64,000 nucleotides of DNA from Candidatus Levyibacteriota bacterium (GCA_003173895.1 PJMG01000012.1:35448-99447), one strand, 5' to 3'. Counted from the stretch's first letter, positions 4,092 to 42,800 are shown. The notes: generated from the sequence alone by a model not told the origin. Made by a program: numbers and translations.

Positions 4092-4129
4092 CTGTTGATT
4101 GTATCTTAATCAAGAATTATACTCAAGTT

Positions 4130-13099: not shown

Positions 13100-13210
13100 A
13101 CAAGTAATTTAGTCAATCAATAAGCAAGCCAAAAACTTTAAGTGCAAATAATAAGCTTTACCTAAAATAAATGTTAACCTAAATTTGCTTCGTGTTATAA
13201 TTAATATGTT

Positions 13211-14557: not shown

Positions 14558-14706
14558 TAGTTTGCTTATTTCGTTTTTAGTATGTATAATAATTTTGTGA
14601 GAAATAATATTTCTCGCATTTGATTAAGGATCTCATAGTTAAAGTTTGCTGATTTAATATATAGTCTCCTCTTTTAAACCGCGGGAAATTTACTCATAAT
14701 TAGTTT

Positions 14707-15609
14707 ATGGATGTTATTCAAGTTAATAATTTAACTAAAAAATTTAAAGATTTTACAGCAGTTAATAATATTTCTTTTTCTATAAAGGAGGGTGAAATAG
14801 TGGGATTACTAGGACCTAATGGTGCGGGAAAAACTACTACTATTCAAATGCTACTAGGAGTTTTAACACCAAGCAGTGGAGAGATAAAATATTTTGGTAA
14901 AAATTTAAAAACTCACAGAGAGATTTTAGAAAACGTAAATTTCTCTACCACTTATACTAATTTACCATGGGATTTATCTGTTTTGGAAAATTTAACATTT
15001 GTATCTTATCTTTATGAAATAAAAAATAGAAAAGAAAGAATTAATGAAATAATTAAAATTTTTCAGCTAGAGGATTTAAAAAATAAAACGATGGGCCAAT
15101 TATCTGCAGGACAATTAACTCGTGTTAATTTAGCTAAAGCATTTATTAATAATCCTAAAGTTTTACTTTTAGATGAACCTACAGCATCCATGGATCCTGA
15201 TATAGCAACCTATTTACGTAATTTTATATTAGAAAGAAAAGAGGAAAATAATATGTCTATTATTTGGACTTCTCATGATATGTTCGAAGTAGAAAAAGTG
15301 TGTGATAGAGTTATTTTTATAAACAGCGGCCAGATTATCGCAGATGATAAACCAGAAAATTTAGCCAAAACTATTCAAAATTCACATATAGAATTATTGA
15401 TTAAAGATGGATTGAAACGACTTATAAACTATTGTGATAAAAATAAACTTAAATACATATCAGAAAAAAGAATTATTACCATTGATGTTAAGGAAAGTGA
15501 AATATCTAAATTTTTGAGAGATATCGCTGATACAAAAATTATTTTTGAGGAAATTAGTATAGAAAAACCAAATTTAGAGGATTATTTTTTGGAGGTGGCA
15601 AAAAAATGA
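14707..15609 (+). CDS. ABC transporter ATP-binding protein
   Basis: Walker A GPNGAGKTT, ABC signature LSAGQLTR, Walker B LLLDEPTASMD. Confidence 0.85.
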   Translation: MDVIQVNNLTKKFKDFTAVNNISFSIKEGEIVGLLGPNGAGKTTTIQMLLGVLTPSSGEIKYFGKNLKTHREILENVNFSTTYTNLPWDLSVLENLTFVSYLYEIKNRKERINEIIKIFQLEDLKNKTMGQLSAGQLTRVNLAKAFINNPKVLLLDEPTASMDPDIATYLRNFILERKEENNMSIIWTSHDMFEVEKVCDRVIFINSGQIIADDKPENLAKTIQNSHIELLIKDGLKRLINYCDKNKLKYISEKRIITIDVKESEISKFLRDIADTKIIFEEISIEKPNLEDYFLEVAKK

Positions 15610-16397
15610 AAGTTAATTTAAGACGAGTTTACGCTATTATTTTGAGATATATGTTTTTATTTAGAAGAAGCTATGATCGCTTAACTGATGCTTTTTATTG
15701 GCCTGTTATTGATTTATTTGTGTGGGGTTTAACCAGTAGTTATCTTAAAAGTTTTGCGCCAAAAGCCTCACCTATTATTCTAATGGTCGTTTCAGGAATT
15801 TTACTTTGGCTTATTGTTTGGCGAGCCCAGTATGAAATTAGTGGAGGAATTTTAGAAGATTTATGGAATAAAAATTTAATCAATATTTTCGTATCTCCAC
15901 TTACATTCTTAGAATGGAATTTAGCATTTATAACAGTTGGTTTAATTAAAATTATCGTAAGCGTACCCTTTGCTATGTTAGTAGCTTATCTTTTGTATCA
16001 TGTTCAAATTTTTCTTTACGGTTTTTATTTAATTCCTTTTGCCATTTCATTAACCATATCTGGTTGGTGGATAGGATTTTTAGTAGCGGGAATTATTTTA
16101 AGATATGGAACTAAAGTTCAAACTATCGCATGGGCGAGTGTAGGTCTTATTTCTCCATTCGCAGCTATTTATTATCCAGTATCTATATTACCCATGTGGG
16201 CTCAAAAAATTGCTTATCTTATTCCTATGACATATATTTTCGAAGGTTCTAGACAAATAATTTTTCAGCATAAATTAGATCCTGAAAAATTAATAATGAG
16301 TTTTGTATTAAATGCAGTATATTTAATAGCTACTATTATTTTTGTAAGATCTTCATTTAAAAAGATCTTAAATAAAGGACTTATAAGGCTAGCATAA
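15606..16397 (+). CDS. ABC-2 type transporter permease
   Basis: 6-TM polytopic protein translationally coupled (4-nt overlap) to the ABC ATPase. Confidence 0.7.
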   Translation: MKVNLRRVYAIILRYMFLFRRSYDRLTDAFYWPVIDLFVWGLTSSYLKSFAPKASPIILMVVSGILLWLIVWRAQYEISGGILEDLWNKNLINIFVSPLTFLEWNLAFITVGLIKIIVSVPFAMLVAYLLYHVQIFLYGFYLIPFAISLTISGWWIGFLVAGIILRYGTKVQTIAWASVGLISPFAAIYYPVSILPMWAQKIAYLIPMTYIFEGSRQIIFQHKLDPEKLIMSFVLNAVYLIATIIFVRSSFKKILNKGLIRLA

Positions 16398-16416
16398 AAA
16401 CTGATATAATTTTTTT

Positions 16417-16872
16417 ATGGAAAACTGTATTTTTTGTCAAATCGTAAATGGTAAAGCTCCATCGCATAAAGTTTGGGAAGATGAAAATTATTTAGCATTT
16501 CTTTCTATATTCCCTAATACTGAAGGAGTAACAGTAGTAATTCCAAAGAAACATTATTCCAGTTACGTTTTTGATTTATCAGATGAAGTATTATCAGAAT
16601 TTATTTTAAAAGTTAAAAAAGTGGCTAAAATACTAGATGCTAAATTAGAAGATGTGGGAAGAACTGGTTTAATTTTTGAAGGATTTGGAGTAGATCATTT
16701 ACATGCTAAATTATATCCTATGCATCGGACAGCTAACATGAAAGAATGGGCTAAGATTGAATCTCAAATAGATAAATATTTTGAAAAATATGAGGGTTAT
16801 TTATCTTCACACGATGCTAAAAGAGCAGATGATCAAATACTTGCAAAATTAGCAGAAAAATTGAGAAAATAA
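16417..16872 (+). CDS. HIT family hydrolase
   Basis: N-terminal CIFCQI and histidine triad-like HLHAKLYP. Confidence 0.65.
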   Translation: MENCIFCQIVNGKAPSHKVWEDENYLAFLSIFPNTEGVTVVIPKKHYSSYVFDLSDEVLSEFILKVKKVAKILDAKLEDVGRTGLIFEGFGVDHLHAKLYPMHRTANMKEWAKIESQIDKYFEKYEGYLSSHDAKRADDQILAKLAEKLRK

Positions 16873-16876
16873 AGAT

Positions 16877-17329
16877 ATGTCAAAACAAGAATTACGTGAT
16901 CAACTAAAAACTTCTATGTTCGCGAAAGACGAATTAAAAACGTCTGTTCTTCGTATGCTACTTTCTGCTATTACCTATTATGAAATAAATAAAGGTGGGG
17001 CTGGATATGAAGCTACAGATGAAGATGTTTTATCAGTTATTCAAACTCAAATTAAACAAAGGAGAGATAGTATAGAACAGTTTGAAAAAGGTGGACGACC
17101 AGAATTAGCTGAAAAGGAAAAGAAAGAATTAGAATTATTACAAGTTTACATGCCTGCTCAAATGAGTGAAGATGAGATAAAAGCTTTAGTTAAAGAAGCA
17201 ATTAGTCAAACAGGAGCAGCAACCATGCAAGATATGGGAAAAGTTATGGGTGCTCTTATGCCCAAAACTAAAGGCAAAGCAGATGGAAGTTTAGTAAGTA
17301 AAATCGTTAAGGAAGAATTAAATAAATAA
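16877..17329 (+). CDS. GatB/YqeY domain protein
   Basis: Typical YqeY N-terminus (LRDQLKTSMFAKDELKTSVLRMLLSAI) and a length of 150 aa. Confidence 0.75.
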   Translation: MSKQELRDQLKTSMFAKDELKTSVLRMLLSAITYYEINKGGAGYEATDEDVLSVIQTQIKQRRDSIEQFEKGGRPELAEKEKKELELLQVYMPAQMSEDEIKALVKEAISQTGAATMQDMGKVMGALMPKTKGKADGSLVSKIVKEELNK

Positions 17330-24077: not shown

Positions 24078-25787
24078 TTATTTTTTACCTTGATAGTGTT
24101 CTAATTTATAGATTTCTATAAAGCTAACATTCTTTTTATCTACTATTTCTGCTTGACCAAAACCTGCTATTTCAAAAAGTGGATTACCTAAAGGATAGCA
24201 TGGAATACTCTCACAAATGACTATTAATTGATTAGTAACTGAAGTTCTTTGAGGATCTAAATAGGGAGGTTGTATAGTTACCGGAGGATGTCCCCAAATA
24301 GTTAAGAAATAACGATAGGCAAAATCAGAATTTCCACCTGTAATTAGAGCTAAATTAAAGGGTTTATTATCTACTTCATTTAAAACTACTTTAGATATTA
24401 ATCTCGCTTGATTAACTTGTTCATTAGGAAGAATTCTTATAGGACTATAATAAATACTAGTAAATATTATCGCTCCTAAAATTAAAATTCCACCAATTTT
24501 ACTTGATATATTTATTACTTGATAGAGCTTGTTATTCTGAGCGTTAGCGAAGAATCTCGTCCTTTTCCAATTATTTTTCCATAAAAATCCTATAAAATTA
24601 CTAATTACTAAAATTACTACAGGATATAAAAATTCAAAATAATAATCATAAATATTTTTTTTATAAAATCCAAAAATTAAGAGTGGTGGAATTAACCAGG
24701 CAAAGATTAAAAAATATTTTAGAAACTTATTTTTATTTGTCATTCTGAGCGTTAGCGAAGAATCTCGTCCCTTTTGTTTTAATAAGCTAACAAATTCAAT
24801 TAAAAAGTAGATTAAACTTCCTAAGGACACGATGGAAATTAAAATAGCAAAAATATCTAGCTTACCAAATGTTGAAACTGCTGTATTGGAAGGTGGGTAA
24901 TAGAATAAAGTTTTCCCAAAAACAGTTATAAATACATCCCAAGTTTTCATCAGGATATTCCCACTTCCTCCTACGTCAGGAGAATGAAAAATAAAATTAA
25001 TAATATTTAATGTGTTTACGAATTTATGTCTTACTTCAAATGCTAAATAAGGAGAAAACCCTATTAAAAATCCTAAAATGAAAAAGAAAAAAATCTTAAT
25101 GTCATCCTGAACTTGTTTCAGGATTTTCTTCATCATCCTAGCTGGTCCAGAATTAATGCTAAAAATAAACTCTGCTCCAATAACATATAAAATTATCGAC
25201 ACTCCTAAAAATGTTTCTATGTAGTGAAGTTGAAGTAAAATTCCATAGCAGATACCGGATAAAATAACCCATTTATTTTTCCCCTCAAACAAACTTCTAT
25301 ATAAAAACCATAAACATAATATGGTAAAAAATGGCATAGGATTTGGATTCCATGAAGATTTAGAATAAATTACTACGAGTGGTGAAATAGCATAAATAAA
25401 TGCTGCTATAAATCCTGTAGTTTTATTAAAAATATTTTTACCAAGATAATAAACTAGATAAACAGTTATTATTCCAAGTAATGCAATCATTACAGCTGGC
25501 CCCACAGGATTATAATTAAATAACCATAAAAATGGTGCCATGAAGTAGTAATAAATAGGACCTAAGAAAAAACCGCCAACAGAACTGGTTGGTCCCAGTA
25601 AAGTTAGATGTCCATGTAAAATATTATAAACAGTTAAGACATCTCTTCCTTCATCTCCTAAAAAAGTCATGTAATCACCAATCCTATAAAATCTTAGGAA
25701 TGCAGCTAACAGTAAAATTAAAAATAAAAGAAAATTTGTTTTAGTAAGATATTTTTTTAAAGCACTTATCATAATATCTAATGCCAT
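24078..25787 (-). CDS. GT-C fold glycosyltransferase, PMT_2 / ArnT-like (GT39/GT83 family)
   Basis: About 12 TM helices. DE motif in first extracytoplasmic loop (TFLGDEGRD). 569 aa. Contains three in-frame copies of dispersed-repeat fragments (24531-24568, 24739-24781, 25101-25124). Confidence 0.75.
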   Translation of the reverse strand: MALDIMISALKKYLTKTNFLLFLILLLAAFLRFYRIGDYMTFLGDEGRDVLTVYNILHGHLTLLGPTSSVGGFFLGPIYYYFMAPFLWLFNYNPVGPAVMIALLGIITVYLVYYLGKNIFNKTTGFIAAFIYAISPLVVIYSKSSWNPNPMPFFTILCLWFLYRSLFEGKNKWVILSGICYGILLQLHYIETFLGVSIILYVIGAEFIFSINSGPARMMKKILKQVQDDIKIFFFFILGFLIGFSPYLAFEVRHKFVNTLNIINFIFHSPDVGGSGNILMKTWDVFITVFGKTLFYYPPSNTAVSTFGKLDIFAILISIVSLGSLIYFLIEFVSLLKQKGRDSSLTLRMTNKNKFLKYFLIFAWLIPPLLIFGFYKKNIYDYYFEFLYPVVILVISNFIGFLWKNNWKRTRFFANAQNNKLYQVINISSKIGGILILGAIIFTSIYYSPIRILPNEQVNQARLISKVVLNEVDNKPFNLALITGGNSDFAYRYFLTIWGHPPVTIQPPYLDPQRTSVTNQLIVICESIPCYPLGNPLFEIAGFGQAEIVDKKNVSFIEIYKLEHYQGKK

Positions 25788-25849
25788 CCTGAACTTATTT
25801 CAGGATCTTCTTAATTCAGAGAGGATGCTGAAATAAATTCAGCATGACA
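25784..25849. repeat. Palindromic dispersed repeat (TGTCAT...ATGACA family)
   Basis: CATCCTGAAC-ttatt-TCAGGATC ... GGATGCTGAA-ataaa-TTCAGCATGACA. Near-identical architecture to 4024-4091. Confidence 0.6.
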
Positions 25850-25853
25850 AGAG

Positions 25854-27005
25854 TTATTTTTTCTTCCAAATAAATTTAGAATAAATAAAGAAGTTCCAGA
25901 TTAAAAGTAGTGCCGTTCCAATTACAAAATAAAGATAATAATATTTAATATTAATTAAAAAATGGAAATTGCCATTATTACTTATAAAAGTATCACCTAA
26001 AAATATAGTTCCTGTTTGAATAAAAATAACTCCGAAAATCGATGTAACATAAAATTGCAGCATTTTCCAGAAGTAGATTCCTATTCCTGTTATTTTTTGA
26101 TGACTAAAAGTCCAGATATTATTTAAATTATAGTTAGAGAAAATGGCTACAGCTGCGCCGACTAGATTAGCTAATGAATGATCCCAGTGAAAAGAATCTG
26201 ATAAAACTTTTAGAATTATAAAATTAATTACGAAACCTGTTCCTCCAACTACTAAAAATTTAAAGAAACTGGATAATTCTATTAACCTCTGAGTAATGAC
26301 AAATTTTAAAGTATTTACAATGGTAGAACCTGATGGAATTTTAGATTCACCCGCTACTCTTTCACCAAAAGCAAATGGTACTTCCGCTACTTTAAATCCA
26401 TCTTCTACAGATTTTAGTAAAAATCCTACCTGAAAATAATAACCAGTTAATTTTTTAATTCTTTCTTTTTCTTTTATAAATACTTCTTTTTTAATAGCTC
26501 TATAGCCGCCTGTCCAATCATGAATATAAAAACGCCCCAAAACAAATCTTATAAATTGATTTCCTACTACGGATAAAAATTTACGATCTATACCCCAATT
26601 TTGAGGAATTGATCCACCATCACTATATCTGGTACCAATTACGAAATCATATCCGGCGTCAATTTTTTTAAGAAATTGAGGAATTTTATCAGGATCATGT
26701 TGGAAATCCGCATCCATTTCAAAAACCACATCTACTTTTAATGCATCAATCGAAAAACTCATAGCTCTTATATATGCTGCACCTAAACCTTTTTTTGGTC
26801 CACTATCTACTCTAATATTTTTATATTTTTTATTTAAACTTTCTGCTATTTTAGCTGTACCATCAGGTGAATTATCATCAGCTACTACAATTAACATTTC
26901 ATAGTCTTTAATACGTGGAAAAACTTTTTCTTCGAGGTAGGTAATAATTTTTTCTATATTTTCTTTTTCGTTATATGTAGGAAGAATAATAGCTGCTTTT
27001 TTCAT
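25854..27005 (-). CDS. GT2 glycosyltransferase fused to GtrA-like membrane domain (polyprenyl-phosphate sugar synthase, DPM1/ArnC-like)
   Basis: N-terminal GT-A domain (ILPTYNE ... VVADDNSPDGT ... EMDADFQHDP = DxD). C-terminal 4-TM GtrA-like domain. Confidence 0.8.
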   Translation of the reverse strand: MKKAAIILPTYNEKENIEKIITYLEEKVFPRIKDYEMLIVVADDNSPDGTAKIAESLNKKYKNIRVDSGPKKGLGAAYIRAMSFSIDALKVDVVFEMDADFQHDPDKIPQFLKKIDAGYDFVIGTRYSDGGSIPQNWGIDRKFLSVVGNQFIRFVLGRFYIHDWTGGYRAIKKEVFIKEKERIKKLTGYYFQVGFLLKSVEDGFKVAEVPFAFGERVAGESKIPSGSTIVNTLKFVITQRLIELSSFFKFLVVGGTGFVINFIILKVLSDSFHWDHSLANLVGAAVAIFSNYNLNNIWTFSHQKITGIGIYFWKMLQFYVTSIFGVIFIQTGTIFLGDTFISNNGNFHFLINIKYYYLYFVIGTALLLIWNFFIYSKFIWKKK

Positions 27006-27955
27006 ATGCTCTTAAAATATTCTATCGTTTTATTAAGTCCTTCTTCAAGTGATACTTTCGGTTCCCAATTTAAAAGTTGTTTAGCTTTAGAGATATCTGC
27101 TTTACGTTTTAGTGGATCATCTAAAGGGAGCTCTTCACTAAAAATTATCTCACTTTTAGAATCAGTTAATTTTTTAACTATTTGAGCATATTCCAGAACT
27201 GTATGTTCAGATGGACTCCCTAAATTTATAACTTCACCTTTTACATTATCATTAAACATAAATTTCATCAGTCCATCGACTAAATCATCTATAAAACAAA
27301 GAGAACGCGTTTGACTTCCATCACCAAAAACTGTAATTGATTCTCCACTTAATGATTGATTAATAAAACTTATTATCATTCTCCCATCTTCCTTTAACAT
27401 ATTTGGTCCATAGGTATTAAAAATGCGAACTATTCGTCCATCTAAATTTTTATCACGAACATAATAAGCAGTTAAAGTTTCACCAAATCTTTTCGATTCA
27501 TCATAAATAGAACGAGGTCCAGTGGTAGAAACATTTCCTCGATAAGTTTCTTTCTGTGGATGTTCTAATGGATCACCATAAATTTCTGATGTCGAAGCAA
27601 ATAAAAATCGCGCATTATTTTTTAAAGCTAAATCAAGTAATAAATGTGTTCCGGTAGTATTAGCCATCATAGTTTGTATTGGAAGAGCCAAATAGCTAAT
27701 AGAACTATGATGATTAGGAGATGCAGGGGATGCTAGATGAAAAAGAAAATCAAATTTTAAATCTCCTTCAACTGGCTTTGTAATATCTGCTTCTATAAAA
27801 GTAAACTGCGGATTATTTAATAAATTTTGTATGTTTGATTTTTTACTAGTTATGAAATTATCTATACAGATTACGCTGTAGTTTTGCTCTAAAAGTCTTT
27901 TACATAAATTAGAACCAATAAATCCTGCTCCCCCAGCAACCAGAACTGTCTTCAT
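27002..27955 (-). CDS. UDP-glucuronate decarboxylase (UDP-xylose synthase) / ArnA C-terminal-like SDR
   Basis: Rossmann GGAGFIGSNL. Catalytic S-x(n)-Y-x3-K region (STSEIYGDP ... YDESKRFGE). 317 aa, typical of UXS. 4-nt overlap with the GT2-GtrA gene. Confidence 0.75.
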   Translation of the reverse strand: MKTVLVAGGAGFIGSNLCKRLLEQNYSVICIDNFITSKKSNIQNLLNNPQFTFIEADITKPVEGDLKFDFLFHLASPASPNHHSSISYLALPIQTMMANTTGTHLLLDLALKNNARFLFASTSEIYGDPLEHPQKETYRGNVSTTGPRSIYDESKRFGETLTAYYVRDKNLDGRIVRIFNTYGPNMLKEDGRMIISFINQSLSGESITVFGDGSQTRSLCFIDDLVDGLMKFMFNDNVKGEVINLGSPSEHTVLEYAQIVKKLTDSKSEIIFSEELPLDDPLKRKADISKAKQLLNWEPKVSLEEGLNKTIEYFKSI

Positions 27956-28002: not shown

Positions 28003-28755
28003 TTAAAAGTTTTTTGCTCTGTATTTATCTTCAGTTATTTTAGTTAAACTTTGAGTATCTGAGTCAAATTCAAATAAATCTGAGAATGGTGCAACTTTTG
28101 TAGAAGTCATCATACCCTTTATATAATTAATTATTATACCTGGTTCCTGGGTTGTTACTTCTTGTCTACCAACATTACATGCTGCAATAATAATTCTATC
28201 TATAGGTTTACCTTGCTGCTTAGATGTAGAAATAATATGATTAATTAACTCTTGTATTGGTGCACCATGAGGAGTATCTGCGTTTTTAAAAACTTTCCAA
28301 GGTTTACCTCCTCCTTCACCAACAATAACTACTATGTGTTCTTTTCTTCCCAATTCTTCCTCTCTCGTTTTTACTCTCTCTTCTACCATGGTTAGTCTAT
28401 ATTTAGAATCACTAAGCACCCAACTAATAGCATCCTCTCTATTCTTTTCATTTGCACGCTTACCAAATCTTCTTGTTGCAGTTATTGCTAACCTACCTAC
28501 TAACTCCCTTACACCGCTAGGCACATAATATGTAATATCACCTAAGCCTGAAGTATTATTCAAGGAAGATAATGCTGAAATTCCCTCAAAGTTATTATCC
28601 AAATTATATGACACAATATCAAATTGCACATTGTTAATCGCAAAAGCTCCTCTTTTTAGAGTAAATGCTCTTTCTTCCTCATTTATTGAGAACATTCTTT
28701 CAGCAAATTCATTTGGCATATAGGTAATGTTAGCACCCATTCTCATAAATGTCAA
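28003..28755 (-). CDS. Hypothetical protein with caspase-like H-G ... A-C-x-x-G dyad signature (candidate clan CD cysteine peptidase)
   Basis: Beta-strand HIVVIVGEGGG then ADTPHG, and ~35 aa later IIIAACNVGRQ. This arrangement resembles the His-Gly / Ala-Cys catalytic dyad of caspase/CHAT/gingipain-like folds. Composition differs from neighbouring K/N-rich genes. Confidence 0.35.
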   Translation of the reverse strand: MTFMRMGANITYMPNEFAERMFSINEEERAFTLKRGAFAINNVQFDIVSYNLDNNFEGISALSSLNNTSGLGDITYYVPSGVRELVGRLAITATRRFGKRANEKNREDAISWVLSDSKYRLTMVEERVKTREEELGRKEHIVVIVGEGGGKPWKVFKNADTPHGAPIQELINHIISTSKQQGKPIDRIIIAACNVGRQEVTTQEPGIIINYIKGMMTSTKVAPFSDLFEFDSDTQSLTKITEDKYRAKNF

Positions 28756-28910
28756 TATTATAGGCTATCTAGTTTCATTCAAAGAAATAATAAGAGTTTA
28801 TTTTATTTTGCAAAATTTTTTTTAGATATTTCTTAAAGATATAGATTTTCTTTCTTACAATTCTCTAACTTGTAATCATTATTACATTTATGTTAAATTG
28901 TAATAATTAT

Positions 28911-29915
28911 ATGGCCAAGAAAGCTTTAATAATTGGAATAACTTCCCAAGATGGATCATATTTAGCGGATCTTCTTTTAGAAAAAGGTTATGAAGTAATT
29001 GGAACATTAAGACGCAGCACTAATTATGTACATGAAAATATTAAACATCTTTATGGAAAAGTAAATTTAGAATTTGCCGATTTACTTGATTTTGAGAGTA
29101 TTGCCAGACTTATTAGAATTTATAAGCCAGACGAAATATATAATATCGCTTCTCAATCAGTCCCTGCTGATAGTTGGAATTTACCTTATTACACTGCTGA
29201 AATTACAGGAATTGGTCCACTTCGGGTTTTAGAAGCAGTAAGACAATTTCATCCGGAAGCTAAACTTTATCAAGCTACCACTCGCGAAATTTTTGGAAAT
29301 ATTACAGCAGATTCTGCTAATGAAGATACACTTTTTGATGCAAATAATCCTTATGGAATTGCGAAAACATATGCACATCTTATGGTTAAATGTTATCGAG
29401 AATCATATGGTATGTTCGCAACTGGTGGAATCTTATTTAATCATGAAAGTCCTCGTCGTGGACTTTGGTTCGTAACCCGAAAAGTGACAGCAGCCGTAGC
29501 TTGTATTAAAAATGGAGTTAAAAATCCACCCATGAATGAAATGGGTGAACCGTTAATCACACCTGACTTTAAGTTACACTTAGGAGATTTAACTTCTCAA
29601 AGAGACTGGGGTTATGCTAAAGAATATGTAGAAGCTATGTGGCTTATCTTACAGCACGATAAACCTATGGATTATATTATAGGCACTAATACCACTCATA
29701 ATGTGGAAGAATTATGTAAAGTCGCATTTGCACATGCAGGATTAAATTATAAAGATCATGTAGTTTCTAATAAAAAGTTTTTCAGACCGACTGAAATTAA
29801 ACCTCTAAAAGGTGATTATTCCAGGGCTAAAAAAGAATTAGGTTGGGAACCAAAAACTTCTTTTGAAGATTTGATAAAACTTATGGTCGATTCCGATCTC
29901 CAAACCTTCAAGTAA
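28911..29915 (+). CDS. gmd: GDP-mannose 4,6-dehydratase
   Basis: MAKKALIIGITSQDGSYLADLLLEKGYEV start; NHESPRRG motif; RDWGYAKEYVEAMWLILQ. The ORF-track start at 28890 adds 7 unlikely residues. Confidence 0.85.
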   Translation: MAKKALIIGITSQDGSYLADLLLEKGYEVIGTLRRSTNYVHENIKHLYGKVNLEFADLLDFESIARLIRIYKPDEIYNIASQSVPADSWNLPYYTAEITGIGPLRVLEAVRQFHPEAKLYQATTREIFGNITADSANEDTLFDANNPYGIAKTYAHLMVKCYRESYGMFATGGILFNHESPRRGLWFVTRKVTAAVACIKNGVKNPPMNEMGEPLITPDFKLHLGDLTSQRDWGYAKEYVEAMWLILQHDKPMDYIIGTNTTHNVEELCKVAFAHAGLNYKDHVVSNKKFFRPTEIKPLKGDYSRAKKELGWEPKTSFEDLIKLMVDSDLQTFK

Positions 29916-29916
29916 T

Positions 29917-30489
29917 ATGGCAGAAGTATTATTAATAAATCCCTTTAATTTTATTCAAAGTATCCCAAGACGTGTTGAAAGAGCCAACAATTATGATCTT
30001 TCTCATACTTCATATGAAATAGCTTTAGAAGTAACTAGAGAATATTTAGATTATGTAGAAAATGAAGGAAAAGAACCCCAGCGCTTAAGTGAATTTCAAA
30101 TTCATCAATCAGCCAATGGAGAAATTTTTTTACAAACAATGACAGGTTTAGTAAAAGAAATCACAGAAAATCCATCTAATGAATATAATAGGAGACGAAT
30201 AGAAATTGCTAAGGAATTAAATGCTAATACTTCTGATGAAGAAAGATATAATCTAGCAAAAAGATTTTTAGATGAGTCAAATAATTATTATGCTTCTCTT
30301 AGTGGTTTAGCAGCAACGGGAGCGGTTGAAAGAAGAGCCAAACTTTTAAAATTGCAAGATACAGATATGAATTTATTTCAAGTAAATGTAATTATTGGCT
30401 CTATGTTAGTTCTACAGAGTGAAATAGCTGATATTAGTGAACATCCTCAAGATACAAGACATAAAAGAATACAGCAAATAGGAGAATAA
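29917..30489 (+). CDS. Hypothetical protein (190 aa)
   Basis: ORF 1 nt after the gmd stop; helical/charged; no motif recognised. Confidence 0.4.
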   Translation: MAEVLLINPFNFIQSIPRRVERANNYDLSHTSYEIALEVTREYLDYVENEGKEPQRLSEFQIHQSANGEIFLQTMTGLVKEITENPSNEYNRRRIEIAKELNANTSDEERYNLAKRFLDESNNYYASLSGLAATGAVERRAKLLKLQDTDMNLFQVNVIIGSMLVLQSEIADISEHPQDTRHKRIQQIGE

Positions 30490-30490: not shown

Positions 30491-31447
30491 TTAATTCTGA
30501 TTTCTCCACCACTCTAATATCTCTCCCAAACTTTTTTCAAAAGGAATTTCGGGGGACCAACCGGTTAGATTTTTTAGTTTAGAAGCGTCACAAATAAGAT
30601 CAGGAATATCACTAGGACGAATTCTGGTTGGATCGGTTTCGACTTTAATAGTCATTTTAGCATGAGAAATGAAAAAATCTAAAATTTCTTTTATTTGATG
30701 AGAAACTCCTGAACCGATATTATAAACTTCCCCGATTTCTCCTTTTTCCATGAGAAGTACGTAGGCTTTCACTACATCTCGTACATCTATAAAATCGCGT
30801 TTAGGATCCAAATTGCCTACTTTAATAATTGGCTCCTGTAAACCTTTTTCTATTTCTGCTATCTGTTTAGCAAAATCTGATGTCACAAAACCGGTTTTTT
30901 GACCAGGTCCTATATGAGTAAAAGGACGAACGCGAATAATAGGCATTTTATAGCTTTTACCGTATTGATAAGCTAAAGCATCACACGCTACTTTAGAGAC
31001 TGCATATGGATTACCGGGTCTAAATGGAGTTTCTTCATCGATAGGTAAATCTTCAGGTTTTACATACCCATAGACATCAGCTGATAAAACGATTAATGTT
31101 TTAGTTTCTGTCAAACCTAATTCTTTTAAACTTTCAAAAAGAAATAACTCTGAATCAATATTATTATGTAACGTCTCTAGTGGATTTTTAATACTTTCCC
31201 CTATAGCTGCCTGAGCTGCCAAATGATAAATTTGATCAGGTTTAATATCTTCTAAAACTTGTTTTAAGTTTTCTCTATTGGTTAGATCTAACTGTACAAA
31301 TTTTATTTTATCTTTAACTGGAGAATTATTTTTAGAATCTTCTGAGTGGTAAGTTCCATAAATTTCGCAGTCACCCAAAGTTAACAAGTGTTGAGCTAAA
31401 TAAGTTCCTACAAATCCTGAAGCACCTGTGATTAAAACTTTCTTCAT
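30491..31447 (-). CDS. NAD-dependent epimerase/dehydratase, GDP-4-keto-6-deoxy-D-mannose reductase (Rmd)-like
   Basis: Rossmann GASGFVGTYL; Y-x3-K (YAVSKVACD). ~318 aa. Genomic linkage to gmd. Confidence 0.6.
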   Translation of the reverse strand: MKKVLITGASGFVGTYLAQHLLTLGDCEIYGTYHSEDSKNNSPVKDKIKFVQLDLTNRENLKQVLEDIKPDQIYHLAAQAAIGESIKNPLETLHNNIDSELFLFESLKELGLTETKTLIVLSADVYGYVKPEDLPIDEETPFRPGNPYAVSKVACDALAYQYGKSYKMPIIRVRPFTHIGPGQKTGFVTSDFAKQIAEIEKGLQEPIIKVGNLDPKRDFIDVRDVVKAYVLLMEKGEIGEVYNIGSGVSHQIKEILDFFISHAKMTIKVETDPTRIRPSDIPDLICDASKLKNLTGWSPEIPFEKSLGEILEWWRNQN

Positions 31448-32736
31448 CTACCTACTCCAACATAATTAAATCCTAATTCTTTTGCTTTTTCGGGTTCATA
31501 AATATTTCTTCCATCGACTAAATTAGGCTCTTTCATAACTGACTTCAATTCTCTTAAGTCTAATTGTTTAAATTCATTCCAATCAGTCACTATTATTAAA
31601 ACATCTACATCTGTAGCTGCTTCGATAGCATTATTAGTATAAACAATATTTGGCAAGATTTTTCGAGCCTTTTCCATCGCAATAGGATCAAAAGCTTTAA
31701 CCGAAGCACCATGATTTAAAAGTTCATTAATTATTATAATCGAGGGCGCATCTCGCATATCGTCAGTATCAGGTTTAAATGAAAGGCCTAAAATACCTAC
31801 TGTTTTTCCTTCTAATTCACCTACTAATGATTTAGTTTTCTTTACAATATTTAAAATAGTTTGTTTATTTACTTCCTCAGCAGATTTCAATAAGGTAAAA
31901 TCATAATCTTCTCCTTTAGCTATATGAATTAAAGCTTTAACATCTTTAGGAAAACAGGAACCACCATAACCAGCTCCAGGACTTAAAAAATATCCACCAA
32001 TACGTTTATCTAAACTTATACCTTCCAGAACTTGCAATCCATCTGCTCCTAATTTTTCAGCTAAATGAGCTATTGCATTAGCGTAGGAAATTTTAGTCGC
32101 TAAGAAAGAATTAGCCGCATATTTTATAAGCTCAGCTGTAGGAATATTAGTTAAAACTCTTTTACCACCAATAGGTTTATGTAATTCTACTAAAATATTT
32201 CTGGCTTTATCTGAATATGTACCGATAACTACACGATCTGGATTTAATGTATCTGAAATAGCTTGACCTTCTCTTAAGAATTCTGGAGTGGAAGCCATAT
32301 CAAACTCAGCTTTTTCAGGTTTTACTTTATTGATTACTGCTTCTAGTTCTTTATGCGTTCCTACTGGAACTGTACTTTTAGTTACTACTACTGTATATCC
32401 ATCTAAATTTTTACCAATCTCCTCGGCTACCTGCTTTACTACAGTAAGATCTGCTTCTCCTGTAACAGGTTTAGGTGGAGTACCAACTGCTATAAATACT
32501 ACTTCTGACTGTGGAATGGCTTCTTTAAAATCTAATGTAAAATGAAGACGATTAGCTGCTAAATTTCTTTTTACTATTTCTTCCAGTCCTGGTTCATAAA
32601 TAGGTAGAAATCCTTTTTTTAAACCTTCTACTTTATCTGGAGTATGTCCAACTACAAAAACATCATTACCTAAGTCCGCGAAAATAGAAGCTGTAACTAA
32701 ACCTACGTATCCATGTCCTATAAATGCTATTTTCAT
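31444..32736 (-). CDS. ugd: UDP-glucose 6-dehydrogenase
   Basis: N-terminal NAD-binding GHGYVGLVTA. Catalytic Cys region (GGSCFPKDV). 430 aa. Confidence 0.85.
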   Translation of the reverse strand: MKIAFIGHGYVGLVTASIFADLGNDVFVVGHTPDKVEGLKKGFLPIYEPGLEEIVKRNLAANRLHFTLDFKEAIPQSEVVFIAVGTPPKPVTGEADLTVVKQVAEEIGKNLDGYTVVVTKSTVPVGTHKELEAVINKVKPEKAEFDMASTPEFLREGQAISDTLNPDRVVIGTYSDKARNILVELHKPIGGKRVLTNIPTAELIKYAANSFLATKISYANAIAHLAEKLGADGLQVLEGISLDKRIGGYFLSPGAGYGGSCFPKDVKALIHIAKGEDYDFTLLKSAEEVNKQTILNIVKKTKSLVGELEGKTVGILGLSFKPDTDDMRDAPSIIIINELLNHGASVKAFDPIAMEKARKILPNIVYTNNAIEAATDVDVLIIVTDWNEFKQLDLRELKSVMKEPNLVDGRNIYEPEKAKELGFNYVGVGR

Positions 32737-32804: not shown

Positions 32805-33257
32805 TTAGTTTAATTGTTTAATTATTTTAAATCCACTACCTTCTGCTTCTAATTGAAACCCATTTTGTGTATAAAAATTTGGTAGCCAAGGCTGTGTCTG
32901 AATATCGCTTGCTGAAATCTGTCCGTCAATTCTTTTAGCACCAAATCGGCGGGCTCGCCTTTCTAATTCTGCTAAAATTGCTGTACCTACTCCTCTTCTT
33001 CTGTTAACTTTAGTTCCTTGATTGGAATCAACATCAATCCTAGCTAAATAAACATATCTATCTCTTTCTTCATATTGATTTGAAGATATATTAAATTCTT
33101 TTTTTATACTAAATGTGGCTGTTGCTAAACCCACTTTAGTTCCATCTAATAACCCTTCTATCTGAATTGTTTCAAAGAGATTATTTCTTAGCTCATTTTC
33201 CCATGAACGATCGTCAAAAATGTATGCAGTGTTATCTGTAATTTGTGCTTCTACCAT
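32805..33257 (-). CDS. GNAT family N-acetyltransferase
   Basis: Acetyl-CoA motif RRRGVGTAILAELERRA. 150 aa. Confidence 0.6.
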   Translation of the reverse strand: MVEAQITDNTAYIFDDRSWENELRNNLFETIQIEGLLDGTKVGLATATFSIKKEFNISSNQYEERDRYVYLARIDVDSNQGTKVNRRRGVGTAILAELERRARRFGAKRIDGQISASDIQTQPWLPNFYTQNGFQLEAEGSGFKIIKQLN

Positions 33258-33340: not shown

Positions 33341-35401
33341 TTAAGATCTAGGAATACAAAAAATAAATTCATTAAAAAAAAAGCGTCTGTCATAAGGTGT
33401 ACCACGATAGGAACTTAATTTCAATTTATCTTCTCTACGACGAATATCAAATATTAAACCCAATATTGGTTTCATTGCTATATTAACAGTCTCATCATTT
33501 TGTAATTCATCCCCATAATGAAGTGCTAGATATGGCCCTATTTCTGGAGGACAAAGATCTAATCCTAAATCTGTTGCCGCCTGATAAATATCTCCAATTG
33601 CTACATAAGGAGGAGAAAAATAAGAAGGTAAATCATTTGCTCTTAATCTTATTAAATCTAAATCTATCGGAGATTGTAATGTCGTAAAATCTGTATTTAA
33701 CATCATAGCCTTTGCCTCTTCACCTATACTAATACCTTTTAACTCTAACTCACGTAGTAATTGTGCAGGAGTTTTAATTGGATCAATTTTAAGCTTTTCT
33801 ATTTTTATTTTTCTACCTGGGAATGATAAATATATTTCATTAACATTATATAATTGTAATTTTTGGAAAATTCCAGCTTCTAAAGAACCTATACTTCCTG
33901 TGTGTATATATACCTTTGTAAATGCATTAATGCTTTCTAAGTTAAGAGCAATTTGCTCTGGTTTATATTCTAAAATAATTGCTGCATCAACGTTAAGATC
34001 TCTGGTCTTTCTTAATTCATAAACTCTTGGATCATTACCTTGTCCAAATCCTTCAATAGGACCATCAAGTTCATATAAAAATCGTACTTCTTCTCGCGTT
34101 AAATCTTTATCAGCTTTTGATTTATTATAAATTTCTGTTAATCGTTTCATATTTTCGGTTCGTTTTTGATAAGCTTTACCATCAGGGAATTCTTGAAGTT
34201 TTTTCTCAACAACCGAATAGATATAGGGGTCTAAATTTTGATTTTCTGTAACTCCTCGTACTTCACCAATCTTATCTCCTTCCATTCTAATTGCTACTCT
34301 AGGAATAGTTGGATTTCCAGCTCTATCCAACGAATAATAAACATAGAAATCTCCTCCTTTCAATTGCTGTCTAGCAGTTGATTCACCTGCGGTACACCAA
34401 CCTGTACTATATCCTATCCTAGATGCTTTTTGTAATGAAGGAACTAATGGTTCAGCTTCAATTGCTTTAGAATCCATTTCTATATGTGGTCTATAAGTCA
34501 TAGGATCAGAATTTCTTGGAAATTTAATCCATACACCTTCTGTTTTATTTAAGAGTTCTCTTGAACCATGTATAATTTTTTCAATTGCCCATGCATATAG
34601 CTTTGCAAAATTTTCTCCTGCTAAAAGTTGTTCAAATCTTTGGCGATCATTTATATCTAAATTAGACAGATCTGTTTGTTTAACTATGTATTTTTTTTCA
34701 ATTGCATCAAGTACATAACTAAGTGCCTCTGGATTAAGCTCAGGAAATGTTTTAGTAGTATCATAAGAACGATTACCAAATGCTTTTTTATCCTTATCAT
34801 ATGTACTCATTTGTAAGATACTACGAAAAGTCCAATATTTTAACCAATCTGGGTAAGGTGCATAACTAGAAGAAAGATAGTCAATCCAACTATCAAGAGA
34901 GTTTTTTTGATCAGTAATAGTTGCCTCCGCAAATTGCCTTGGAAGATCGCTTAAGTCTGTAGCTACTAAATCACCACCTTGTCCACGTTCATACATTTGT
35001 AGTATTTGTTTATCAATTGCACTTAATTTATATAGCTTACCTTCTGTATCTATTGGTTTCCCAGCATTATCTCTTTTTGCCACCATAATATCTCTAATTT
35101 CAGGATTGATAGAGAAAGCAGGATTATCAGGTTTTATAATAAATTTTTCATATAAAACTCTTTTTAAAATATCTAGATTTCTTTTCTTCCGATCAAAATC
35201 AGGATAATCTTCTAGTGAAGGAGGATTAATAAGAGAATTTAAACGATCCAGAAAATTTTGGATTCTGGCAGAAGGATTATTTTGAGCGAGATTTTCTCCT
35301 ATATGTAAATAATTATGTTTAGCTGCTGATTGCACTTCAGAACTCGTACGCAAAGAGGAATATTTTTTATCTAAAAATTTAGGACCTGCACTTTCTGGCA
35401 T
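33341..35401 (-). CDS. Large uncharacterised soluble protein (686 aa) embedded in dTDP-rhamnose operon
   Basis: Starts 3 nt after the rfbD stop. No TM, no recognisable catalytic motif (no Walker A, HExxH, DxD). Non-K/N-rich composition unlike the genome background. Confidence 0.5.
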   Translation of the reverse strand: MPESAGPKFLDKKYSSLRTSSEVQSAAKHNYLHIGENLAQNNPSARIQNFLDRLNSLINPPSLEDYPDFDRKKRNLDILKRVLYEKFIIKPDNPAFSINPEIRDIMVAKRDNAGKPIDTEGKLYKLSAIDKQILQMYERGQGGDLVATDLSDLPRQFAEATITDQKNSLDSWIDYLSSSYAPYPDWLKYWTFRSILQMSTYDKDKKAFGNRSYDTTKTFPELNPEALSYVLDAIEKKYIVKQTDLSNLDINDRQRFEQLLAGENFAKLYAWAIEKIIHGSRELLNKTEGVWIKFPRNSDPMTYRPHIEMDSKAIEAEPLVPSLQKASRIGYSTGWCTAGESTARQQLKGGDFYVYYSLDRAGNPTIPRVAIRMEGDKIGEVRGVTENQNLDPYIYSVVEKKLQEFPDGKAYQKRTENMKRLTEIYNKSKADKDLTREEVRFLYELDGPIEGFGQGNDPRVYELRKTRDLNVDAAIILEYKPEQIALNLESINAFTKVYIHTGSIGSLEAGIFQKLQLYNVNEIYLSFPGRKIKIEKLKIDPIKTPAQLLRELELKGISIGEEAKAMMLNTDFTTLQSPIDLDLIRLRANDLPSYFSPPYVAIGDIYQAATDLGLDLCPPEIGPYLALHYGDELQNDETVNIAMKPILGLIFDIRRREDKLKLSSYRGTPYDRRFFFNEFIFCIPRS

Positions 35402-35404: not shown

Positions 35405-36286
35405 TTATATATTATAATTTAATTGCCTTTTTATTTCTTCCAATCCTTCTCTAAATGTCTTTAAATTTACGCCCAATTTTTTTATTTTATTGTTATTAAG
35501 CGATGAGTTATATGGTTCTTTTGGCTTATCAATTAAAAATTCTGCTCGTGTTGTAGAAGCTATTAAACTTTTATCCAATCCGGAAACGTTGGCTATTTCT
35601 AAAGCCGCATCATAAATACTTAGTGAAGTATCACCCACTACATGATAAATACCGTTAGCGCTATTTTCGATCAAGATATCAACTGCTGTTGCTATGTCAT
35701 CTATAAAAGTAGGAGTAATAATTCTATCTTTTAAAACTGTTAATTGTTCTTTATTTTTAAGTTTTTGTATAAATAGCCTGACAAAATCATTTTTCTCATA
35801 ATTAGCTCTGTATGGATAAGCTACGCGAGTAATAGTCCATAGAGTTTTTATATTTTTTACTCTTAATTCTCCTTCATATTTAGTCTGAGCATACCAGTTA
35901 AGTGGATTTTCGCGATCTCTCTCTGTATAACCTCCCTCGGGCGTATTTTCTCCATCGAAAACTAAATCTGTAGAAAAATAAATAAGCGGAATATTATTCT
36001 CTTCACAAACTTGAGCCACATTTTCTGTCCCTAAAACATTTATTTTCCACGCTTCACTTTTTTCACCCAAGTTTCTATCCAATTCTGCCTGTTTTACATT
36101 AGTATATGCTGCTAAATGTAAAACAAAATCTGGTCTTAAATCCTGAAGAGATTTTTGAACACTTTCTTTACTCGTTATATCTACGCCTGTACTTCTACTA
36201 ATATTTTCAAAAGTATATTTATCTTTAAGAAGTTCTAAAATTCTGGAACCAATTAATCCATTTAAACCAGTAGCTAAAATTTTCAT
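35405..36286 (-). CDS. rfbD: dTDP-4-dehydrorhamnose reductase
   Basis: N-terminal Rossmann GLNGLIGS; Y-x3-K (YAQTKYEGE). 293 aa. 4-nt overlap with rfbB. Confidence 0.8.
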   Translation of the reverse strand: MKILATGLNGLIGSRILELLKDKYTFENISRSTGVDITSKESVQKSLQDLRPDFVLHLAAYTNVKQAELDRNLGEKSEAWKINVLGTENVAQVCEENNIPLIYFSTDLVFDGENTPEGGYTERDRENPLNWYAQTKYEGELRVKNIKTLWTITRVAYPYRANYEKNDFVRLFIQKLKNKEQLTVLKDRIITPTFIDDIATAVDILIENSANGIYHVVGDTSLSIYDAALEIANVSGLDKSLIASTTRAEFLIDKPKEPYNSSLNNNKIKKLGVNLKTFREGLEEIKRQLNYNI

Positions 36287-37308
36287 AATTGGTCAATATT
36301 TCCGCCTAAGTTATTACGCATTATTTCTTCATAATCCTCTTTTTTTATTTGCTCCCACCAGCTTCTATTTTCTATATACCAATCAACAGTTTTTTTAAGC
36401 CATGTATCAAAATCATGTAAAGGTTTCCATCCAAGTTCTTTATTAATTTTAGTCCAGTCCACATTATATTTTCTATCATTACCTTGTCTATCTTTAACAA
36501 ATTTAATATGCTCTTCACCCATATCTAAAACTTTTAAAATCCTCTTAACTACTTCTAAATTAGAAATTCCTTTATGCATTCCACCGATTAAATAAGTTTC
36601 ACCTATTTTACCTTTATTTAAAATTAGCTCAATAGCACGTACATGATCTTCTACATATAACCAATCTCGAACATTTTTACCATCACCATGAACAGGAACT
36701 TTTTTACCCTCTAATAAATTGGTAATCGCGATAGGAATTAATTTTTCCGGATACATCGCAGGTCCAAAATTATTAGAACAGTTACTAATAGTAATCGGCA
36801 AATTATATGTATGATGATAAGCTCTAACTAGATGATCAGCTCCTGCTTTAGTGGCTGAATAAGGACTAGAAGGATTATATGGAGTTTTTTCACTAAACTG
36901 TGAAGTTGTCTCTAAGTTTAAACTACCAAAAACTTCATCAGTAGAAATGTGATGAAATCTTTTTATTTTATGTTTCTTAGCTGCCTCAAGAAGTACATAA
37001 GTTCCGACAATATTAGAATTTATAAAAGGAAGTGGATCCATTATGGAACGATCTACATGTGTTTCTGCTGCAAAGTGAACTACTATATCTACACCACGCA
37101 TAATTTCATCTACTACTTCTGCATTACAAATATCAGCACAAACAAATGAATAATGTGGATTTTCCTGTACGCCTAGGAGATTAGCTAAATTACCTGCGTA
37201 AGTTAATTTATCAATATTAATGATTTTATCTTCTGGATGATTTTTCATCCAATAAAGAATAAAATGCGAACCTATGAATCCTGCCCCTCCAGTTACCAAA
37301 AGCTTCAT
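36283..37308 (-). CDS. rfbB: dTDP-glucose 4,6-dehydratase
   Basis: GGAGFIGSHF; Y-x3-K (YSATKAGAD); classic RfbB length and motifs. Confidence 0.9.
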   Translation of the reverse strand: MKLLVTGGAGFIGSHFILYWMKNHPEDKIINIDKLTYAGNLANLLGVQENPHYSFVCADICNAEVVDEIMRGVDIVVHFAAETHVDRSIMDPLPFINSNIVGTYVLLEAAKKHKIKRFHHISTDEVFGSLNLETTSQFSEKTPYNPSSPYSATKAGADHLVRAYHHTYNLPITISNCSNNFGPAMYPEKLIPIAITNLLEGKKVPVHGDGKNVRDWLYVEDHVRAIELILNKGKIGETYLIGGMHKGISNLEVVKRILKVLDMGEEHIKFVKDRQGNDRKYNVDWTKINKELGWKPLHDFDTWLKKTVDWYIENRSWWEQIKKEDYEEIMRNNLGGNIDQL

Positions 37309-37375: not shown

Positions 37376-38011
37376 ATGGATCAAACAAATAATTACGAAT
37401 TAGTTATTAAACCCACAGACCCAGATTTTCCCAAAATGATCGAAACTACAGATATTCCAGGATTACTAATTTACCAACGTGAAACTTTCGAAGATAACCG
37501 GGGATTTTTTAGAGAAGCCGTAGAACTACGTGATCTGGAAAAAGTTTTAGGTAAAAAAATAACTGTAACTCAGTGGAATCATTCTTTATCACATTCTAAA
37601 GTTATACGAGGATTTCATGCAGAACCATGGGAAAAAATTATTTATGTGTTAAGAGGTGAAGTAATGGCTGCTATAGTGGATTTAAGATTGGATTCTCCTA
37701 CTTTTGGAAAAGTAGTTACAGTGACTTTAGGAGAAAATAATAGAAAAACTCTTTATTTACCTAAAGGTATGGGAAATTCTTTTTGCGTAACCAGCTCTAC
37801 AGATGCTGAATATATGTATATGATCACTGATTATTTTGAGGGCAAACCCACACCTGCAGTTGCATGGAATGATCCTGTTTTAACCAAACAGTTTGGTGGT
37901 TGGCCTGTAGAAAATCCTATCGTTAGTGAAAAAGATATGAATTATCCTACACTTAAGGAAAAATTTGGTGATCAAGTAGACTTCTCTAAATTTCCCTGGC
38001 TAAATAGTTAA
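37376..38011 (+). CDS. rfbC: dTDP-4-dehydrorhamnose 3,5-epimerase
   Basis: Cupin fold motifs (QRETFEDNRGFFRE ... SKVIRGFHAE ... MYMITDYF). Confidence 0.85.
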   Translation: MDQTNNYELVIKPTDPDFPKMIETTDIPGLLIYQRETFEDNRGFFREAVELRDLEKVLGKKITVTQWNHSLSHSKVIRGFHAEPWEKIIYVLRGEVMAAIVDLRLDSPTFGKVVTVTLGENNRKTLYLPKGMGNSFCVTSSTDAEYMYMITDYFEGKPTPAVAWNDPVLTKQFGGWPVENPIVSEKDMNYPTLKEKFGDQVDFSKFPWLNS

Positions 38012-38019
38012 ATTTCAAT

Positions 38020-38044
38020 GTCATCCTGAACTCGATTCAGAATC
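38020..38044. terminator. Hairpin (TGTCAT repeat-family fragment) between convergent rfbC and kinase genes
   Basis: GTCATCCTGAActcgaTTCAGAATC followed by TTTTAATATT; possible bidirectional terminator. Confidence 0.4.
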
Positions 38045-38052
38045 TTTTAATA

Positions 38053-39513: not shown

Positions 39514-39533
39514 TTGCTTATTAGTTTATTGGA

Positions 39534-41889: not shown

Positions 41890-41930
41890 ATTTATTAATC
41901 AAATCCTATAGATATTTATCTTTTTAATAA

Positions 41931-42095: not shown

Positions 42096-42131
42096 AAAAC
42101 AAAATCAATCTTATTACAAACCTCTGCTAAC

Positions 42132-42740: not shown

Positions 42741-42800
42741 GTTTAATCAAAAGCGAGCAGAAGTATATTTTAAAACGCATTGAAAGTTTGCTCTATGATA
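42741..42800. repeat. Partial copy (left half) of the ~165 bp repeat, upstream of tsaC / overlapping tsaE 3' end
   Basis: aaagcgagcagaagtatattttaaaacGCATTGAAAGTTTGCTctatgataatttc, near-identical to the left arm of the copies at 41931 and 50763. Confidence 0.45.

Follow-up and report, generated by a model that had tools for sequence, protein, structure and literature searches.

Which sugar does a conserved pair of membrane glycosyltransferases carry to the cell surface, and is it made by the decarboxylase encoded just before them? This question is raised by a 64,000-nucleotide stretch of DNA from Candidatus Levyibacteriota bacterium (GCA_003173895.1 PJMG01000012.1:35448-99447), hereafter the window, whose minus strand encodes a UDP-glucuronate decarboxylase/UDP-xylose synthase (UXS), a family 2 glycosyltransferase (GT2) fused to a GtrA-like domain, and a membrane glycosyltransferase of the GT-C class. 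A first-pass annotation had read these three co-directional genes as a three-component module resembling the ArnA-ArnC-ArnT route of lipid A modification, in which UXS makes UDP-xylose (UDP-Xyl), the GT2 loads xylose onto a polyprenyl phosphate, and the GT-C uses it outside the membrane. The three open reading frames (ORFs) lie exactly where that annotation placed them, and their family types (UXS, GT2-GtrA and PMT_2 GT-C) are confirmed by Pfam and by a score of 312 bits between the UXS and human UXS1. The sequences also support its general logic, in which a polyprenyl-phosphate glycosyltransferase (Pren-P GT) with a flippase-like domain would feed a GT-C outside the membrane. With a probability of roughly 55%, however, we favor a different division of labor, in which the GT2 would make polyprenyl-phosphate mannose (or 6-deoxymannose), its fused domain may flip the product, the GT-C would transfer the sugar on the outside, and UXS would serve another transferase.

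The G+C content of the window is about 30%, and the named homologs of its GT-C are nearly all assigned to the "Patescibacteria group", Microgenomates or Levybacteria, in agreement with the origin in the Candidate Phyla Radiation (CPR) considered earlier; judged by its sequence, the organism is a Microgenomates-type member of the Patescibacteria. Table 1 compiles the features of the locus.

Table 1. Features of the glycosylation locus and its surroundings. Positions are counted from the first nucleotide of the window; aa, amino acids; nt, nucleotides; SDR, short-chain dehydrogenase/reductase; TM, transmembrane.
Feature	Position	Strand	Remarks
GT-C(A)-fold membrane glycosyltransferase, PMT_2 family	24078-25787	-	569 aa
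Palindromic repeat pair, 21 nt	25786-25845		fills the GT2/GT-C spacer
DPM1/DPMS-type polyprenyl-phosphate GT2 with GtrA/DPMS-type TM domain	25854-27005	-	383 aa
UDP-glucuronate decarboxylase/UDP-xylose synthase (UXS)	27002-27955	-	317 aa
Inserted soluble ORF	28003-28755	-	250 aa
GDP-mannose 4,6-dehydratase (GMD)	28890-29915	+	P. aeruginosa GMD 1rpn, 316 bits
Inserted soluble ORF	29917-30489	+	190 aa
GDP-6-deoxy-D-lyxo-4-hexulose reductase-like SDR (RMD)	30491-31447	-	A. thermoaerophilus RMD 2pk3, 291 bits, E 1e-85
UDP-glucose 6-dehydrogenase (Ugd)	31444-32736	-	three UDPG_MGDP_dh Pfam domains; TuaD model, 538.6 bits
Inserted soluble ORF	32805-33257	-	150 aa; weak GNAT signal
Inserted soluble ORF	33341-35401	-	686 aa
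RmlD	35405-36286	-	Pfam RmlD_sub_bind, 221 bits; head of the conserved operon
RmlB	36283-37308	-	Pfam GDP_Man_Dehyd/Epimerase; head of the conserved operon
RmlC	37376-38011	+	dTDP_sugar_isom, 146 bits

The SDR encoded first in the trio is by sequence a UDP-xylose synthase, predicted to convert UDP-glucuronate (UDP-GlcA) to UDP-Xyl. It aligns with human UXS1 over its whole length (E 4e-92), while the next family reaches 146 bits, which places it with the decarboxylases and not with the epimerases or dehydratases, a grouping that would have told against the annotation. Pfam recognizes an Epimerase domain at residues 4-246 (175.8 bits), with GDP_Man_Dehyd also matched, and the Rossmann NAD-binding motif GGAGFIGS occupies residues 7-14 (GxxGxxG, extended SDR type). 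The alignment to 2B69/4GLL indicates that the catalytic residues of human UXS1 are kept, within ASTSEIYGDP, YDESKR and GSQTRS. An ArnA identity was rejected, with 78 bits against the 312 obtained with human UXS1; the ArnA and U4kpxs NCBIfam models both scored far under their cutoffs, and none of UXS, GT2 and GT-C passes an NCBIfam equivalog cutoff. Relative to human UXS1, the CPR enzymes carry an insertion of 5-7 residues directly after ASPASP, which is NHHSS in the window protein (residues ~79-83) and longer in the homolog of locus L001.

The GT2 belongs, on sequence grounds, to the DPM1/DPMS family of dolichyl-phosphate (Dol-P) mannose synthases, and its similarity to the GDP-mannose enzymes far exceeds that to each of the UDP-dependent Pren-P GTs with which it was compared. 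It comprises a catalytic domain (residues 1 to ~235; Glycos_transf_2, 96.4 bits) and, as in PfDPMS, the type-III Dol-P-mannose synthase of Pyrococcus furiosus, a four-helix GtrA/DPMS-type TM domain (residues 249-380; GtrA_DPMS_TM, 47.5 bits). Among solved structures, the full-length protein matches PfDPMS (5MLZ) best, with 132 bits over residues 3-340, compared with 49.5 bits for ArnC and 43.8 for GtrB; the corresponding values for the catalytic domain alone are 110, 45 and 45 bits. The sequences of mammalian DPM1 and of yeast ALG5, a UDP-glucose-dependent Dol-P glucosyltransferase, were retrieved by name for comparison. Between the GT2 and DPM1 the identity is 38% across 240 aligned residues (133 bits, E 4e-41); with ALG5 the GT2 scores 24 bits, while DPM1 and ALG5 score 54 bits with each other. 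Against the ArnC model PRK10714 it obtains 49.3 bits (cutoff 529), and it has a GtrA-type TM domain instead of the two-helix TM anchor of that family. A scan of genome contigs with the GT2 returned mostly generic Bacteroidota DPM1-like catalytic domains, standalone proteins of 250 aa in housekeeping contexts, which were set aside; the only full-length relatives that it provided were those of loci L007-L012.

The residue roles described for PfDPMS (PMC5526996) were mapped onto the window GT2 and its relatives. The metal/diphosphate motif DxDxQ is present as D98-A-D100-F-Q102, and in its extended form this motif is a hallmark of Pren-P GTs (PMC10821137). Equivalents are kept of the guanine contacts Asp39 and Gly68-Leu69 (in DDNSPD and KKGLGAAY, the latter matching KKLGLGTAY of DPM1), of the mannose O2/O3 contacts Asp89 and His94 (in DADFQH, the DADxQH motif), of the metal ligands Asp91 and Gln93, and of Arg202 and Lys208. 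The residues Arg117, Arg131 and Ser135 of the Dol-P phosphate site correspond to R126, R141 and S145, which are invariant in 59 family members. At the position of the guanine loop, ArnC, GtrB and ALG5 have RN(Y/F)G or RGKGG, and at that of the metal motif DADLQ(N/D) or DADGAS. In the TM domain, the equivalents of the polar-pocket residues Asn248 and Asn277 are present, while the fourth helix (positions of the gating Phe338 and of the pocket residue Arg/Asn341) did not align to PfDPMS, the alignment with 5MLZ running through residue 340. In PfDPMS, Dol-P-mannose has been found bound head-down in the TM domain, and flipping has been proposed (PMC12992685).

The GT-C has a PMT_2 domain at residues 77-205 (58.3 bits, cutoff 26.1) and an invariant D44-E45-G-R47-D48 after its first TM helix, which gives the first external loop a conserved acidic residue and a PMT-type DE motif. 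SWNPNP, E250-x-R-H and KKxIY are also invariant, as are C524 and C529 in the C-terminal soluble domain (~447-568), for which no informative structural neighbor was found. Sequence searches against solved structures found no relative of the protein, ArnT included. An AlphaFold model built from 54 homologs was confident (pLDDT 84.6, pTM 0.89); its lowest Foldseek E-values were to AglB/STT3 (4e-7), and its TM-scores were about 0.5 for oligosaccharyltransferases, ArnT, ALG9/12 and Pmt4 alike. The enzyme that had been called PMT_2/ArnT-like is thus a PMT_2 protein, and the predicted structure suggests a generic GT-C(A) fold rather than a specifically ArnT-like one. An oligosaccharyltransferase identity, which would have told against the annotation, was rejected, since neither WWDxG nor any WWD was found in the sequence and the structural score is no better than those of other GT-C families. 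The protein is predicted to use a lipid-linked sugar on the outer side of the membrane.

Three copies of a palindromic element that is dispersed in the window lie within the GT-C coding sequence (24529-24562, 24737-24770 and 25091-25127). Two of them represent one and the same element of 29-33 nt, which is inserted in-frame but read in different frames, giving GRDSSLTLRMT and RTRFFANAQNN. At these positions 80% or more of 53 homologs are gapped, and the insertions account for the length of this GT-C, 569 aa against about 525.

The genomic context was surveyed in 5 full-length genomic relatives and 80 metagenomic loci collected through the GT-C alignment, onto which the window proteins were mapped; operons devoid of the GT2/GT-C pair are therefore invisible to this census. 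In about 60 related loci we found a conserved operon, RmlB-RmlD-Ugd-RMD-GMD-UXS-GT2-GT-C, of which the trio is the 3' end. Four distant relatives (GT-C 48-50% identical) present it as one co-directional block, (RmlA)-NUDIX-RmlB-RmlD-Ugd-SDR1-SDR2-SDR3-GT2/GtrA-GT-C, in which BLAST equates SDR1 with RMD, SDR2 with GMD (48-50% identical to that of the window) and SDR3 with UXS. The orthologs of the window RmlB and RmlD in relatives are 46-66% identical, and the UXS orthologs located upstream of GT2 are 57-70% identical to the window enzyme. RMD and GMD together are predicted from their sequences to make GDP-D-rhamnose. The TuaD-type Ugd, which had been noted as lying near the trio and is about 3.5 kb from it, is thus a regular member of the operon.

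GT2 and GT-C are adjacent in every sampled locus with enough upstream sequence, down to a GT-C identity of 41%. The arrangement UXS-GT2-GT-C recurs in 46 of 56 non-redundant loci although their GT-Cs are only 41-50% identical, far beyond chance. The other ten loci lack UXS. Two of these, L113 and L131, retain an N-terminal UXS remnant of about 60 residues (65-67% identical), and these remnants are deletion scars. In neighbor-joining trees of the GT2 and of the GT-C, the ten loci fall at no fewer than 5-6 separate places in each, so that UXS has been lost repeatedly while the GT2/GT-C pair remained intact. Sequence of 5.3 kb or more before GT2 was available for 42 loci; all 42 contain Ugd, while 41 contain RMD, 41 GMD and 37 UXS. 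UXS is, therefore, the least conserved member of the operon, dispensable at the locus and a facultative neighbor of the pair. Its loss has left no systematic trace at the mapped active-site positions of the GT2: GLGAAY is invariant in 49 of 49 GT2s that accompany a UXS and is kept in 8-10 of 10 sequences at each position in those that do not.

In the Woesebacteria locus L011, where UXS was not found in the operon, GMD itself overlaps GT2 by 4 bp. In the same locus (11047-14894), the orthologous GT2 precedes two divergent PMT_2 GT-Cs, which share 29% and 25% identity with that of the window, and a further short GT2, an arrangement that suggests one lipid-linked donor for several GT-Cs.

These results also explain why the window gives the impression of a three-gene module. 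GMD and the 190-aa ORF next to it (28890-30489) are inverted, while GMD is co-directional and placed between RMD and UXS in nearly all relatives; this inversion, together with the inserted ORFs, isolates the trio from the remainder of the operon. The proposed module is consequently a local artefact, and adjacency does not single out UXS, because in the relatives the pair follows Ugd-RMD-GMD-UXS within one operon. GMD is inverted in loci L087 and L117 as well, and the segment may invert recurrently. The four inserted ORFs have no counterpart in about 90 related loci, nor any match in PHROGs, PADLOC or permissive Pfam scans except the weak GNAT signal of the 150-aa ORF.

Taken stepwise, the favored mechanism would proceed as follows. 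On the cytoplasmic face, the GT2 would move a hexose from a GDP-sugar onto polyprenyl (undecaprenyl) phosphate; the likeliest donor would be GDP-mannose or its 6-deoxy derivative GDP-D-rhamnose, made by the GMD and RMD of the operon, two donors that cannot be distinguished by the sequence of the enzyme. The fused four-helix domain would anchor the GT2 and possibly flip its product across the membrane. Outside, the GT-C would use the lipid-linked sugar through its invariant DEGRD loop to glycosylate an envelope acceptor, which could be a wall polymer rich in rhamnose or a protein of the cell surface. UXS would supply UDP-Xyl to another, probably cytoplasmic, transferase, and it would not be a dedicated donor-maker for the pair.

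Several observations weigh against this reading. The donor sugar cannot be read with certainty from a GT2 sequence. Lys178 of PfDPMS, which contacts mannose O4/O6 and the phosphoester, is replaced by Tyr in the window GT2 and mostly by Thr or Ile in its relatives; DPM1 itself has Val there, so this Lys is not a family-wide requirement. The TM domain alone matched nothing in the PDB even at E 10, and the membership of this half of the protein in the type-III DPMS group appears weak; the strictly defined type III is reported only from archaea (PMC12992685). The lactococcal WpsA uses UDP-GlcNAc, yet its best structural match is PfDPMS (PMC10821137), so that for our GT2 we rely on sequence identity and on the nucleotide-loop motif rather than on the fold. 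At the level of the locus, UXS stands directly upstream of GT2 in 82% of the loci with at least 1.1 kb of upstream sequence (46/56), with a 4-bp overlap in 27, as would be expected if the two were functionally linked. GMD or RMD can be missing as well (L137, L160 and L161). Finally, L137 has another UXS-like gene (16168-17103, 45% identical to the window UXS) some 7 kb beyond the downstream end of its operon, so CPR genomes can carry UXS paralogs outside the operon; absence from the locus is not absence from the genome, and the UXS-less genomes may hold the enzyme elsewhere.

The same adjacency and overlap, seen also in the window, argue for the reading from which we started, an Arn-like pathway without lipid A in which xylose from the UDP-Xyl made by UXS would be loaded by the GT2, flipped by the GtrA-like domain and attached to an envelope acceptor by the GT-C. 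We consider it unlikely, though it has more in its favor: the SDR is a true UXS by sequence, Ugd belongs to all 42 operons, and PfDPMS shows a limited promiscuity in vitro, where GDP-glucose gives about one-quarter of the product obtained with GDP-mannose and UDP-glucose is within error (PMC5526996). However, 4-bp overlaps are found all through the operon, and RMD and GMD lie between Ugd and UXS, so gene order is not pathway order. Xylose as the lipid-linked sugar agrees poorly with the guanine loop and the DPM1/DPMS affinities of the GT2, and with the history of UXS, which was lost in at least 5-6 lineages, leaving remnants in two cases, without damage to GT2 or GT-C or change in their active sites. 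Neither was a lipid-linked xylopyranose donor derived from UDP-Xyl found in the literature; the sole related item is undecaprenyl-phosphate xylofuranose (UndP-Xylf), which is made from phosphoribosyl pyrophosphate (PMC11127046).

A considerably less probable alternative is that GT2 and GT-C are neighbors and not a donor-user pair, with the GT-C acting, for example, as an oligosaccharyltransferase or polymerase on a polyprenyl-diphosphate glycan and the GT2 serving other enzymes. The Foldseek ranking of AglB/STT3 points in this direction, as do faint NCBIfam matches to archaeal STT3 (19.9 bits against a cutoff of 450 for archaeo_STT3) and to Agl23, both far under cutoff. Least probable, by a little, is that the GT2 loads GlcA from UDP-GlcA, or GlcA and Xyl promiscuously, with UXS as an optional side-chain switch like the auxiliary epimerase ORF13 of Citrobacter youngae. 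Unlike every other sugar-nucleotide gene, Ugd occurs in all 42 operons, and it persists where UXS was deleted; a precedent also exists in which an auxiliary SDR has been lost, leaving remnants, and the sugar has changed with it although the promiscuous GT-C remains (PMC11127046). However, the DPM1-type nucleotide loop, the similarity scores and the sugar-contact residues of the GT2, which match the mannose-binding set of PfDPMS, speak against it, and a cytoplasmic GlcA transferase would explain the retention of Ugd equally well.

One further proposal, which we advance tentatively and consider less likely than not, is that this DPM1-like GT2 is a self-flipping bacterial synthase of archaeal, type-III-like character that loads D-rhamnose from GDP-D-rhamnose or xylopyranose from UDP-Xyl, and that the Microgenomates envelope is D-rhamnosylated or xylosylated. 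A literature search found no polyprenyl-phosphate donor of D-rhamnose described, nor anything relevant on the glycosylation of CPR envelopes.

Compared with known systems, the pair is of a familiar kind: lipid-linked glycosylation of the three-component type with a DPM1-type synthase, as in Ppm1/Pmt and in the archaeal and eukaryotic DPMS/PMT systems. The new elements are the CPR lineage, the occurrence of this fusion in bacteria and the setting in a conserved operon. DPM1 and PfDPMS share with the window GT2 the DADxQH motif, the guanine loop and the phosphate-site residues described above. The window enzyme differs from them in being bacterial, in the replacement of Lys178, in the weak similarity of its TM domain when taken alone, in its lipid, which is presumably undecaprenyl and not dolichyl phosphate, and in sharing its operon with GMD and RMD, which makes 6-deoxymannose a possible sugar.

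Actinobacterial Ppm1, a DPM1-like polyprenyl-phosphate mannose synthase, feeds Pmt (GT39) and other GT-Cs that depend on polyprenyl-phosphate mannose, and it thus offers a bacterial example of such a synthase working with a PMT-type GT-C. The window GT-C differs from Pmt in the absence of a MIR domain according to Pfam, and the window genes differ in being fused, adjacent and located within a sugar-nucleotide operon. In the Gram-positive Caldicellulosiruptor bescii, a GT39 enzyme performs protein O-glycosylation (PMC6151902).

The three-component systems (GtrB/GtrA/Gtr*, CsbB/GtcA/YfhO, GacI/GacL and the lactococcal Csd) likewise encode together a Pren-P GT2, a GtrA-type module and a GT-C, and in Gram-positive bacteria with rhamnose-containing cell wall polysaccharides the glycosylation genes also lie beside the genes for the precursors of the rhamnose polymer (PMC11127046, PMC10821137, PMC7389260). 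Unlike in these systems, the flippase-like module of the window shares one polypeptide with the GT2, which is of the DPM1 type and not of the UDP-sugar-dependent GtrB/CsbB type (44-45 bits to GtrB), and the GT-C represents a CPR-specific PMT_2 subfamily without a sequence relative in the PDB. The specific analogy to ArnA-ArnC-ArnT is not supported for any of its three members: the SDR is a UXS and is dispensable at the locus, the GT2 is distant from ArnC, and no sequence match links the GT-C to ArnT. In addition, the locus has no aminotransferase, formyltransferase or deformylase.

The palindromic elements of the GT-C gene belong to a family dispersed in the window and mostly intergenic and paired; one 21-mer is matched 7 times where 0.01 matches would be expected. 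A pair of them (25773-25845) fills the spacer between GT2 and GT-C, unlike in the relatives, whose two genes overlap or nearly so; other sites are 4015-4107, 38010-38046, 45384-45422, 51312-51350 and 58180-58218. They are reminiscent of the Rickettsia palindromic elements. A second repeat, direct and intergenic, occurs in 3-4 copies of 63-143 nt that are 77-90% identical (41923-42102, 42742-42804, 50756-50934 and 52285-52427), upstream of several minus-strand genes, and may be a shared regulatory or leader element. Promoter-like matches in the window were below chance (39 found, 50 expected). Terminator-like matches numbered 8 against 4.2 expected; they include palindromic repeat elements and do not define the ends of the operon.

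Elsewhere in the window, a 107-aa ORF (41566-41889) covers no more of TsaD than an N-terminal portion (positions 25-84 of the 264 in the profile), and the ORF after it (40677-41585, 302 aa) has a CAP/SCP domain; TsaE and Sua5/YrdC are encoded just upstream, and TsaD appears to be truncated or its gene split. Other envelope-glycan genes, at 11081-13099, 14707-16397, 38572-40421 and 51383-52243, encode a 672-aa Acyl_transf_3 protein (OatA-like), an ABC-2 type transporter pair, two cytoplasmic GT2s by RmlC, and BacA/UppP, the undecaprenyl-diphosphate phosphatase. These genes may provide the remainder of the glycopolymer pathway.

The mechanism that we propose is a familiar one, and its general significance is accordingly modest. 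Even so, the fusion of a DPM1 catalytic domain to a GtrA-like domain, lately described as archaeal, is found here to occur widely across a bacterial radiation. In the CPR, whose members are uncultivated, the chemistry of the envelope is little characterised; for bacteria of the Microgenomates type, our analysis defines a strongly conserved operon of about 8-10 genes that is predicted to supply dTDP-L-rhamnose, UDP-GlcA, GDP-D-rhamnose and usually UDP-Xyl, that ends in a lipid-linked glycosylation pair, and that opens a major surface glycoconjugate of this group to experimental testing.

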